Below, one piece after another: positions 28,407 through 31,400 of a stretch of DNA of 64,000 bases. A program made the translations under genes and the position numbers. Source of the stretch: a virus (Duplodnaviria; Caudoviricetes); the IMG/VR virus record IMGVR_UViG_3300032308_001420, positions 1 through 64,000 of that record. One strand, given 5' to 3'. The stretch's first letter is position 1. Every line of letters starts with the position of its first letter. Under the pieces are notes generated by a model. That model saw only the letters and a list, made by a program, of their open reading frames with translations. It made no database searches and had not been told where the DNA came from.

Positions 28407-31400
28407 TAGTTTCTTCTTCCCACTCCAGTCATTGCTGCTCTCATTACATTCTTTTGATCAAGCATGTCTACAACCATTGTTGCAATCATTTTTTCATCTT
28501 GTCCTGGTTGTGCATTCACAACAAATCCACCAACATCATAGTGGTGAACTGCTCCACCTTTATTATATCCTGGAATTTGATTTTTGCCAAGGGATACTGT
28601 ATTTGTAGGAATATTGTATCTTGGTCCTACTGCTCCACCCATTGCATAAGCTGGAACACTCATATTAGAATAACTAGATGGATTTACATACCCACCTCTT
28701 GCAAAACCAAGACCCAGCTCTTCCAATATAGTTCCCTTTGGCTTATTAAGTGCAATCCACTTTGCCGTGTCTATTGAAATATCGCCAGTTTGACCAGCAT
28801 TAATTCTTGGCATAATTGATCCAGTCATGCCAGATTTATTCATAAGAGGTCCTAGATTTTCTCCAGCTCCCATAAATCCTTCTTTGCTAAGCAAGCTCCA
28901 TAAACCATAATTTTGTCTCTTTAAATCTTTTGAAAAATCCAAATACTTACCGAAAGGTATTTTTGTTATCTTATTAACAGAGCCATATGACTCTCCCCAT
29001 TGCCCAGGAACATTATATCCGCCAGCATATAAATCAGCTTCTGCCTTTGAGCTTGTTCCATAGAATCCCATTCCATAATAAGGATCACGAGCATAATCTC
29101 CAGATAAATCTGTGACTCCACTAAATGGTCCATCAGAGTTTTGTCCTAGGTCGGCAGACCCATGGAACATTCCCTTCTTAACCATTTTCTTAGCTTTAAA
29201 ATAATTCATATATTGATTAAATAAATTAATTGGCTTATATGCCAGATCTTTGCTCTTTGATAAAATTCCAGCAAGCTTACCTATTAGGCCCCCGCCTGCA
29301 TATTTACGAACTGGTCCGCCCATCGCATAATCTGATGTGTCTCCATAGTTAGTTTTTTTATACCAATCTGCGTCTGCAGAAATTTTAGGAATATCTTCAT
29401 CCCATCCTACTATTTTTTTAGAAGACAATCTACTCTCAATTGCTGTTTTAACATTTTCTATATATTGCTTATACAGCTTTATTGGCATTGAATCTGCTGA
29501 GTAACCAGATGCGCTTAACATTTCTATTAAATCGCTATCTTTTATACCAGACAATGTTGACTGTGCTCTCTGAAGACCCTCTAAATATGCATCTCTTTCA
29601 GATTCTGGTAAGTATGAAAGCCCTTGATAGTATCTATTTTTTAGCCTATCAATAGATTTTTGTTGATCTCCAAATATATCTAATGAATGCTTGGAGTCTC
29701 CAATTCTGCCAAAATCAATAGCGCCAGCTTTTTTACCTATTGGATTTATAATTAAATTTCCGCCATGTGCATCTGAGTATCCAAGTGCATCTAATATTGC
29801 ATTTCTATAAGATCTTTCAGAAGTCATTCCAAGAGCAGCAAATGTTCTTGTGGGCAATGCGCTGACATTTTCTAGTGGCTTAAATGCACTCCAAAACATT
29901 GGATCTTTTGATAGCTTTTCAACTATAATCTTTTCTGTAATAGAACCCTTAGATATCTCATCTACTGATTTGCTAAATATTCCAAGGTTGTGTGGGAAGG
30001 AATAAGGTGTTTTGTAGGGCTTTATTACTGGAGCAACCAGGCCAGCCTTGCCTGCAAAAATAGAGCCAAATATTTCTCGTCTTACTTCATCTGGAGTTAT
30101 TTCGTTTAAAGACTTAAGATATCCAGTATCGCCAGACTTTATATGCTCTACAAGCTGTGTAATATTTAATGATGCTGGAACATTGGATTCTAGTGTTTTA
30201 AATTCTGTATAGTCAAGTAATTCTGGAAACTTTATTACATCATTTATATCTTTTGTTGTTTTACCCATTTTAATTTTAATGGGAGATGAAGCAGCTGCAG
30301 ATGCTGCTTTGCTTATTCCACCTATTTTACTTCCTAAACCCGCTCCCATAAAATTGAGTGGCAGCATTGCTGCAGATAGTGAATCGCCTTTTCTGCCTTG
30401 TCCAGCAATTTTTCTTAGTAGTGCTGCTGTTCCAAATGTTTCTGCACCTGGCATTCCGCTAAGGCTAGATACATATCTTTGGAACCAATTTTGTTTTTTA
30501 GCTGGGCTAGAAGAACCAAATGATGACATTCCCATTGCATGTGGAGCAGAACTTACCATGCCACCATCTGCAAAACCAAATGGCCAAACATTTTTTACTA
30601 GTTTTAATGTTTTTGGTGCGTCACCAAACATCTGTCCATATACTTTTGCTGGTAAAGAGTAAATTTCAGGTAATGATTCTAATAAATCTTTGCCACTTAA
30701 TAACTGTGGAAACTCCATGCTTCCCTGTGCCTTGCTATTTCTTACAGCACCTTCACCTAAGAAATTTGTAAGCTGGGATATTTTTTTATCAATTCCAAAC
30801 ATTGGCAATTCTTCGCCAAGTTTTGCTGATCCTATCATTGCGCTATATAAAGCGGCTATATGTGGATTAGTAGAAAAATAAGTTGAAAGATCTCTTTCTC
30901 CAGTTCTCCAAGCGCTACCTGCGGTGTTTCTTACACCCTTAAATAATTTAATAACGTCATCTGGAAGCAAGTCATAAAATTCTTTTGCATAGTATTCATT
31001 AAATTTTCCTACATCAGAAAAATCAATTTTTGGATATTTAGCCTTTAGTAATGCTTCTCTTTGCGCCTGGACAAGTTCCCAAGCACCAGCACCTGCTTTG
31101 CTTAGACTTCCTTCCTGTATCCATCCTTTGAGCGCTTCCTTTGCTGAGCTTGGGCTAAAGGTAATTCCAGTTTCTGGAATTTTGATTGAAGATGGATCTA
31201 ACTTTGATAAATCTTGTACAGCCTTGGCATCAATGTCTGCCATACCGAAGGATTTCATTTCAGGGGTAAGTTTTGATATAGCTCCTGGTACCTTTGCTGC
31301 GCCCCGTCCAACTCCTCCAAGTGGCAGTAGTGCTGCAGATAAGTAGTCTAATTTATTTCCAGTTCCAGAAAATACATTTGCAACTTCTTTTCCGCCTAAG

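Follow-up and report, generated by a model that had tools for sequence, protein, structure and literature searches.

A module with a predicted protein-kinase-like fold in the giant tape measure proteins of a small clade of uncultured phages

The tape measure proteins (TMPs) of tailed phages are known for three roles, namely, measuring the tail, opening the host cell wall, and forming a channel for the DNA. They fill the lumen of the tail, exit before the DNA, and build a channel across the host envelope, and peptidoglycan hydrolases occur among their domains (PMC12617516). Known TMP-borne enzymes act on the cell wall, whereas the subject of this analysis is a TMP that carries a kinase-fold module. 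The module lies in a 3,819-residue TMP encoded on the minus strand of a 64,000-nucleotide stretch of viral DNA, hereafter the window, which comprises positions 1 to 64,000 of the IMG/VR virus record IMGVR_UViG_3300032308_001420 (75,684 bp, about 70% complete). Full-text literature searches returned no description of a kinase-fold module in a TMP.

The closest described arrangements on the phage side are multidomain proteins predicted to act on the host at entry. Polyvalent proteins of phages and plasmids, which carry kinase and ADP-ribosyltransferase (ART) domains, have been predicted to accompany the DNA into the host and to modify proteins there, and the kinase of phage T7, gp0.7, which phosphorylates host proteins early in infection, serves as their precedent (Iyer et al., 2017, PMC5512222, and work cited there). 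As in the TMP analyzed here, polyvalent kinases reside within very large multidomain phage proteins; their family (Kinase-PolyVal, PF18762), however, is of the Ser/Thr/Tyr type and has lost the whole C-terminal subdomain (PMC5512222), whereas our module retains a helical C-lobe in its model. The expression "tape measure" occurs 0 times in the main text of that article. In the MuF polymorphic toxins, variable enzymatic cassettes are mounted on a virion protein (PMC5576092); enzymatic TMPs and MuF toxins resemble the present TMP as virion structural proteins with variable C-terminal enzymatic cassettes. Polyvalent proteins are recognized by at least two effector-type domains together with delivery alongside the DNA, and here the kinase-fold module, a CHAP domain, and a LysM domain are all found in one polypeptide. 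T7 gp0.7 itself is no virion protein; it is made from an early gene following entry.

Among cellular proteins, the best structural counterpart is CtkA (JHP0940; PDB 3AKJ, 3AKK, and 3AKL), a single-domain, atypical Ser/Thr kinase similar in size to the module. The Helicobacter pylori gene lies on a mobile element, the integrative and conjugative element tfs3, and the effect of the protein depends on a secretion system (PMC5536186). The two differ in that CtkA is a free bacterial protein and the module is part of a phage structural protein, and they share only 9–12% identity in structural alignments, with no sequence match in PDB searches by single sequence or by profiles. The HipA and HipT kinases (HipA_C, PF07804) match the module in fold, and the module lacks the N-terminal domain of HipA; no antitoxin gene was noticed, no search having been aimed at one. 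Their catalytic loop, which we take to be DxHxxN rather than the classical DxKxxN, has the same form in the module. The lipid kinases of the PI3K/PI4K type, including Legionella MavQ, likewise match in fold and have the DxHxxN and IDFG motifs in common with it; unlike these enzymes, the module has no helical or C2 accessory domains, and the one of nine members that matches their family model (PF00454) does so far below its cut-off. Typical bacteria do not contain phosphoinositides.

The gene and the elements on which the argument depends are as follows, with residues numbered along the TMP (P0001); numbering within the module plus 3189 gives P0001 numbering.

28406..39865, minus strand: TMP gene, 3,819 residues, a single open reading frame (ORF) assigned by PF10145, TIGR01760, phrog_10030, and tail-gene order (between a major-tail/chaperone-like gene set and minor tail genes)
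38552..39148, minus strand: PhageMin_Tail (PF10145) core, residues 240–438 (Pfam)
29357..30241, minus strand: kinase-like module, residues 3209–3503, with a predicted protein-kinase-like fold and a new sequence family (AlphaFold2 model, Foldseek, VIA-align, conservation in 18 modules)
30110..30124, minus strand: GYLKS, residues 3248–3252, with the putative ATP-anchoring Lys K3251 (module K62; invariant 18/18; model strand 58–63)
30062..30082, minus strand: RREIFGS, residues 3262–3268, with the putative helix-C Glu E3264 (module E75; R74, E75, F77, and G78 invariant; model helix 69–84)
29747..29773, minus strand: DAHGGNLII, residues 3365–3373, the catalytic-loop signature DxHxxN (D3365, H3367, N3370; D176, H178, G180, and N181 invariant 18/18)
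29708..29722, minus strand: AIDFG, residues 3382–3386, with the putative metal-binding Asp D3384 (D195 and F196 invariant; G197 kept in 17/18)

An initial annotation of the window, made from its letters, had placed a HipA/PI3K-like kinase domain inside a TMP at 29480–30150, a span that corresponds to residues 3239–3462 and falls within the kinase-like module. The designation of the enclosing protein as a TMP is borne out. P0001 matches PF10145 (97.6 bits, E 1.1e-27; cut-off 33.2), TIGR01760 tape_meas_TP901 (100.2 bits, E 1.2e-28; cut-off 28.8), and phrog_10030, "tail length tape measure protein" (E 2.1e-123). In the direction of the coding strand, the gene is preceded by genes for a portal, a protease, a capsid protein, a head–tail adaptor, an Ig-domain protein, and two small chaperone-sized products, and is followed by minor tail protein genes. 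P0001 is thereby confirmed as the tape measure protein of a siphophage, and the gene order as a siphophage tail module. The four motifs on which the kinase proposal had been built (GYLKS, RREIFGS, DAHGGNLII, and AIDFG) are real and lie in one ORF on the minus strand; over 29480–30150 the plus strand is full of stops in frame 1, the sole plus-strand frame translated. A DxHxxN followed by DFG 8–30 residues on occurs once in P0001, and in 4 of 20,000 shuffles of the protein.

The fold of the module was modeled with AlphaFold2 (AF2) on an alignment of nine sequences (A1), which returned a mean pLDDT of 77.5 and a pTM of 0.80. The predicted N-lobe consists of three strands, the third of which (58–63) holds K62, a helix (69–84) that carries E75, and two more strands. 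The predicted C-lobe is helical: DxHxxN is placed in a loop preceding strand 182–185, DFG comes directly after strand 190–193, and residues 203–292 are again helical. As modeled, the order of these elements and the placement of the signature residues are those of a canonical kinase. Two structural comparisons lead to the same class of proteins. A Foldseek search of the PDB gave 304 matches at E ≤ 0.001, the best 50 of which are all kinases, with CtkA first (E 2.6e-6, TM 0.43–0.53) and PRPK, PI3K, mTOR, PI4KIIIbeta, and several tyrosine kinases after it. VIA-align, an independent alignment against 48,161 representative chains, placed 27 chains at Z ≥ 8 and kinases in all of its top 50 rows. Here, too, CtkA leads (Z 15.3, 228 aligned residues, rmsd 3.7, near full-length coverage of both proteins), followed by MavQ (13.5), HipA and actin-fragmin kinase (12.7 each), PI4KIIalpha (12.2), Fam20 (11.4), HipT (11.1, with a further HipA/HipT match at 10.7), CotH (10.8), ATM (10.5), PI4KIIIbeta (9.7), and PI3Kalpha (8.4); WaaP is also among the matches. 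Of the features that characterize protein-kinase-like (PKL) proteins, a bilobal fold, a strand-3 Lys with a helix-C Glu, and Dx[KH]xxN with DFG are present. On the strength of the model, the conclusion holds that the module has a PKL fold, nearest to the atypical CtkA/MavQ/HipA/PI4K group.

Conservation falls on the same residues. In an alignment of 18 modules (A3, mean column identity 37%), the positions invariant in all 18 are G59, K62, R74, E75, F77, G78, A89, P90, F108, S109, G118, R165, D176, H178, G180, N181, N185, G192, D195, and F196, and K62, E75, D176, H178, N181, and D195 are also invariant in all nine sequences of A1. The Gly of DFG (G197) is replaced only in the locus L012, which has DFS. 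Overall, the aligned modules are 25–53% identical to the query, the copy in locus L002 excepted (98%). Between that copy and the query, dN/dS is 0.23 (13 synonymous and 11 non-synonymous differences), a value consistent with purifying selection, the counts being small.

The module is rare. An exhaustive HMMER search of 1.84 billion representatives yielded only 7 clusters at E ≤ 0.001, four of them about 30% identical (P0010–P0013). A word-based search limited to long proteins recovered 8 relatives besides the query, 2,216–4,572 residues long and 49–55% identical over the module. PF10145 matches 8 of the 12 homologues; the four that it does not match (P0004, P0006, P0010, and P0012) include the two shortest, P0010 (359 residues), which starts directly with the module, and P0012 (811 residues). 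In IMG/VR, a scan gave 83 matching stretches; 16 of them code for a relative, and these represent 15 distinct loci. In 14 of these the module lies in an open frame of 3,303–4,582 residues, the frame in L015 (1,504 residues) being cut by the end of the locus; six of the 15 frames run off the locus start. Blastp detects the TMP core in 12 of the 15 frames, and each of the exceptions (L013, L015, and L016) is truncated on its 5′ side. Neither the homologues nor the IMG/VR loci included a full-length gene in which the module stands alone, and the family was found only within giant TMPs (15 of 15 IMG/VR loci), those of a small clade of uncultured phages. Fold comparison gives a broader picture: the best neighbours in BFVD are large phage multidomain proteins of similar fold, some annotated as a PI3K/PI4K catalytic domain and two as ADP-ribosyltransferase (in Mycobacterium phage Onyinye, 1,340 residues, and in an uncultured phage, 1,220 residues), which indicates that this clade is not alone in having kinase-fold modules within large multidomain proteins of phages.

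Within these TMPs the module behaves as a cassette. Its surroundings in the window include the following elements.

30554..30574, minus strand: linker FADGGMV, residues 3098–3104, the upstream cassette boundary (motif census; at the start of the 94.5% block shared with L002)
29282..29329, minus strand: linkers YAMGGPV and YAGGGLI, residues 3513–3528, between the kinase-like module and module D (motif census)
28631..29263, minus strand: module D, residues 3535–3745, which travels with the kinase-like module; a weak lead to ART-PolyVal (ESM Atlas 0.87)
32312..32557, minus strand: CHAP domain, residues 2437–2518 (PF05257, 7.7e-06, 26.8 bits against a cut-off of 26; endolysin PHROGs down to 8e-20)
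31973..32119, minus strand: LysM domain, residues 2583–2631 (PF01476, 5e-12)

The linkers were counted with the motif [FYLMW][ASNKD]xGGx[VILA] (short form [FY]AxGGxV), as in FAQGGAV, FADGGMV, and YAMGGPV. P0001 contains it 15 times (residues 903–3782), whereas 5,000 shuffles averaged 0.78 and never exceeded 6; every one of the 15 giant frames of related TMPs contains it 2–12 times. Copies bracket the kinase-like module (residue 3098; residues 3513 and 3522) and module D (3522; 3721), and sit at the edges of a block that spans the two (residues 3100–3725, window 28690–30566, minus strand). This block has 94.5% nucleotide identity to L002:9733–11607, whereas the rest of the two genes is at 71–76%, a disparity that points to recent recombinational exchange of the cassette between diverged TMP genes. 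The motif may be a linker or a docking strand, or else mark a site of recombination or of cleavage.

Blastp of nine P0001 segments against the 15 giant frames revealed a mosaic composition. Module D, represented in this comparison by residues 3542–3722, is adjacent to the kinase-like module in 5 of the 15 loci and in P0002–P0006, P0008, and P0009; it follows the kinase-like module in the window, L002, L003, L004, and L008 and precedes it in L007, P0008, and P0009. The TMP of L006 (4,557 residues, open frame 332–14002) contains two kinase-like modules, at residues 2392–2682 and 3224–3510, each 49–50% identical to that of the window. CHAP/LysM, module C, and a Gly/Pro-rich segment are distributed over differing subsets of relatives, and P0008 and P0009 have an OmpA-family domain in place of CHAP/LysM. 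From CHAP/LysM here and OmpA in relatives, it appears that the array mixes wall-directed modules with others that presumably act in the cytoplasm. The kinase-like module is thus a mobile cassette: it is bounded by linkers, shuffled in order, duplicated in one relative, and recently exchanged.

The neighbouring modules are less readily classified. Module D has conserved motifs (MxHGS, YGMGF[YF]GT[ST]SK, and WGE[SA]xGS) that, by eye, resemble an H-Y-E ADP-ribosyltransferase. Its ESM Atlas match to ART-PolyVal (score 0.87, 131 shared features) is below the trustworthy range; it has no Pfam match, the ART-PolyVal HMM finds nothing in the virus record, and its AF2 model, from a 7-sequence alignment, is unusable (pLDDT 30.5). 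Module C (residues 2800–3100) has no match in Pfam or elsewhere. Module B (residues 1251–1545, window 35231–36115, minus strand), which L002 has at 65% identity, matches nothing in Pfam, the ESM Atlas, or PDB sequences; to the eye, it has an R...S.S...ExE-like pattern (LYRG, SSWS, SEQEAIF) reminiscent of R-S-E ADP-ribosyltransferases.

What such a cassette would do is a matter of graded probability. The module has all the residues for ATP binding and phosphotransfer and, as modeled, is most likely an active ATP-dependent phosphotransferase. We place at about an even chance the fuller proposal that this part of the TMP is an active, delivered, host-modifying phosphotransferase cassette of a new kinase-fold family. 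Under this proposal, the C-terminal part of the TMP would be an array of globular modules (kinase, CHAP, LysM, and others) on short [FY]AxGGxV linkers, shuffled by recombination. Since the TMP departs from the tail before the DNA does, infection would bring the array, if retained in the virion, to the envelope or into the cytoplasm of the host. There, given access to ATP, the kinase would phosphorylate a host target, most likely a protein, in the service of early takeover or of countering defence. The arrangement suggests a tail that brings in an enzyme along with the DNA.

Several points weigh against this proposal, some of them structural and physical, others drawn from sequence comparison. 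The AF2 model is based on a shallow alignment of nine sequences; the N-lobe and residues 131–150 are of lower confidence, and residues 1–20, 140–145, and 317–331 are low-confidence stretches. Strands 1 and 2 are not joined by a glycine-rich loop, and clustering of the signature residues at a nucleotide pocket is only implied, by their canonical placement in the model and by the VIA-align score to CtkA. The C-terminus of a TMP is at the tail tip, pb2C of T5 has been proposed to be released into the periplasm, and gpH of lambda is cut in its glycine-rich C-terminal region after tail assembly (PMC12617516). If the present TMP behaves like those of lambda and T5, its C-terminal end would be the first part to be released, into the wall or periplasm, which contain no ATP, and, given the cleavage of gpH, the cassette might not remain part of the virion. 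Several copies of a folded 33-kDa domain would also be hard to house in the lumen of a tail tube. Finally, the class of substrate is not fixed by the structural comparison, since lipid kinases are among the best matches.

The sequence searches belong on the same side. Pfam, PHROGs, and NCBIfam give no kinase above cut-off for the protein or the module. Pfam on nine members at E ≤ 10 yields ABC1 in two (best E 0.001, sub-threshold) and PI3_PI4_kinase in one (E 0.12), the query not being matched by the latter. An hhalign comparison with Escherichia coli HipA has a probability of 0.1% and aligns only the helix-C region. In PDB sequences, phmmer and the A1 and A3 profiles find no kinase; what they match, with poor E-values throughout, are designed helical repeats, M protein, and actin. 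HipA_C, which did match the control genomes, has no match in the 75.7-kb record, nor in the nine members at E ≤ 10. Kinase-PolyVal likewise has none in the nine members at E ≤ 10 or in the virus record, and tblastn of the module against 50,697 phage records returned nothing usable. No sequence model thus recognizes the module, and by sequence it is filed as a new family of kinase-like fold, not as HipA_C, PI3_PI4_kinase, or Kinase-PolyVal. The interpretation given in the initial annotation is partly supported. The suggested structural comparison did recover a kinase fold, with CtkA as the best match; since CtkA, MavQ, HipA, and PI4K lead the structural matches, the grouping with HipA, CtkA, and PI3-4K rather than with classical protein kinases is right at the level of fold, and the signature residues are conserved. 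Membership of HipA_C or PI3_PI4_kinase, in contrast, fails by sequence. The functional suggestion in that annotation, of a pre-packaged kinase that would be injected and phosphorylate host targets at entry, somewhat as T7 gp0.7 does, is conjectural.

Four other explanations compete with a delivered host-modifying enzyme. An active kinase-fold enzyme might modify something other than protein; lipids, sugars of the cell wall or of LPS, and small molecules are candidates, and the reaction would take place at the membrane while the TMP serves as the channel for the DNA. The presence of MavQ, PI4KIIalpha, PI4KIIIbeta, and PI3Kalpha among the best matches (Z 13.5, 12.2, 9.7, and 8.4), the sugar and LPS kinases Fam20 and WaaP, the BFVD neighbours annotated as PI3K/PI4K catalytic domains, and the envelope-directed CHAP and LysM domains of the same TMP, with OmpA in relatives, would all suit such an enzyme. 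Yet CtkA, the top match, is a protein kinase, as are HipA, HipT, actin-fragmin kinase, and CotH; rank in fold does not predict substrate, and there is no ATP outside the cytoplasm. We regard this explanation as unlikely, if a serious contender. The kinase might instead act in the producing cell, late in infection or during tail assembly, on phage or host proteins, and then be buried, inactive, or cleaved at a glycine-rich linker before the virion is complete. Such a fate would dispose of the steric problem of folded domains inside a tube, and it has a parallel in lambda gpH, the C-terminal fragment of which is lost at a glycine-rich region after assembly (PMC12617516); in the present TMP, the module is flanked by GG linkers of a kind that recurs 15 times. 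No direct sign of cleavage is seen in this TMP, however, and delivery more easily explains both the fusion to the first-expelled protein and a shuffling like that of polyvalent and MuF proteins. Action in the producing cell seems decidedly unlikely.

That the module is a pseudokinase or a structural plug, its fold kept for binding (nucleotide sensing or tail-tip docking) without catalysis, has in its favor the missing glycine-rich loop. Many kinase-fold proteins are non-catalytic. The invariance of five catalytic-signature positions in all 18 modules, at 25–53% overall identity to the query (L002, at 98%, apart), would nonetheless be unexpected for a pseudokinase, and we consider this account very unlikely. 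Chance resemblance of the motifs in a long, low-complexity protein would agree with the failure of sequence-family searches to return a kinase, and it is effectively refuted by the rarity of the motif pair in shuffled sequences, by fold matches to kinases only, and by the invariance of the motifs across homologues; its likelihood is negligible. A pseudogene was also considered and rejected, given a single open ORF of 3,819 residues and invariant motifs.

The proposal of a delivered phosphotransferase can be extended, although we offer the extension tentatively and think it rather doubtful. The C-terminal half of these giant TMPs would then consist of enzymes that are injected to modify the host (the kinase, possibly an ART-like module D, and others), in an array that is polymorphic and recombines. 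Its linkers would double as recombination junctions and as sites at which modules are freed after expulsion of the TMP, by cleavage of the kind known from the glycine-rich region of lambda gpH. The siphophage tail would be an effector-injection device comparable to MuF toxins, the type VI secretion system, and contractile injection systems, and the kinase, representing a new family, would serve takeover or anti-defence within the first minute.

If true, an ATP-dependent, signalling-type enzyme in a TMP would extend the idea of virion-delivered effectors, so far based on polyvalent proteins, MuF toxins, and the virion RNA polymerase (vRNAP) of N4, to the lumen of the siphophage tail, and would raise the question of whether part of a TMP reaches the cytoplasm folded and active. 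The module itself is small (about 300 residues) and self-contained, and represents a kinase-fold family that no sequence library recognizes; the 18 aligned modules, one of them duplicated, are natural variants for comparison. The exchange of linker-bounded cassettes is, in addition, a testable model for how such arrays diversify.

Elsewhere in the TMP, two hydrophobic stretches were noted by eye at 38140–38250 and about 34790–34900 (minus strand; residues ~540–575 and ~1655–1690, coordinates approximate), both with a similar K[LM]PGPVK start; judged from sequence, they may be candidate membrane-inserting segments. The N-terminus of the TMP is 34–36% identical to TMPs of Streptomyces phages. 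A DnaE-like polymerase (1,089 residues, 10624–13893, minus strand) is 56–57.5% identical to those of high-GC Streptomyces phages such as BillNye and Circinus, the GC content of the present phage being 36–43%.

Three paralogues matching phrog_2295 (unknown function) are encoded at 51008–52240, 57944–59662, and 60085–62058 (minus strand), with two phrog_7759 genes and a gene for a collagen-like tail fibre (52250–53392) lying among them; they may constitute a diversified receptor-binding set. The window also encodes, all on the minus strand, an Hsp20-like protein (208–684), a Cas4-domain nuclease (7073–7864), and a cupin or cysteine-dioxygenase-like protein (3985–4323).

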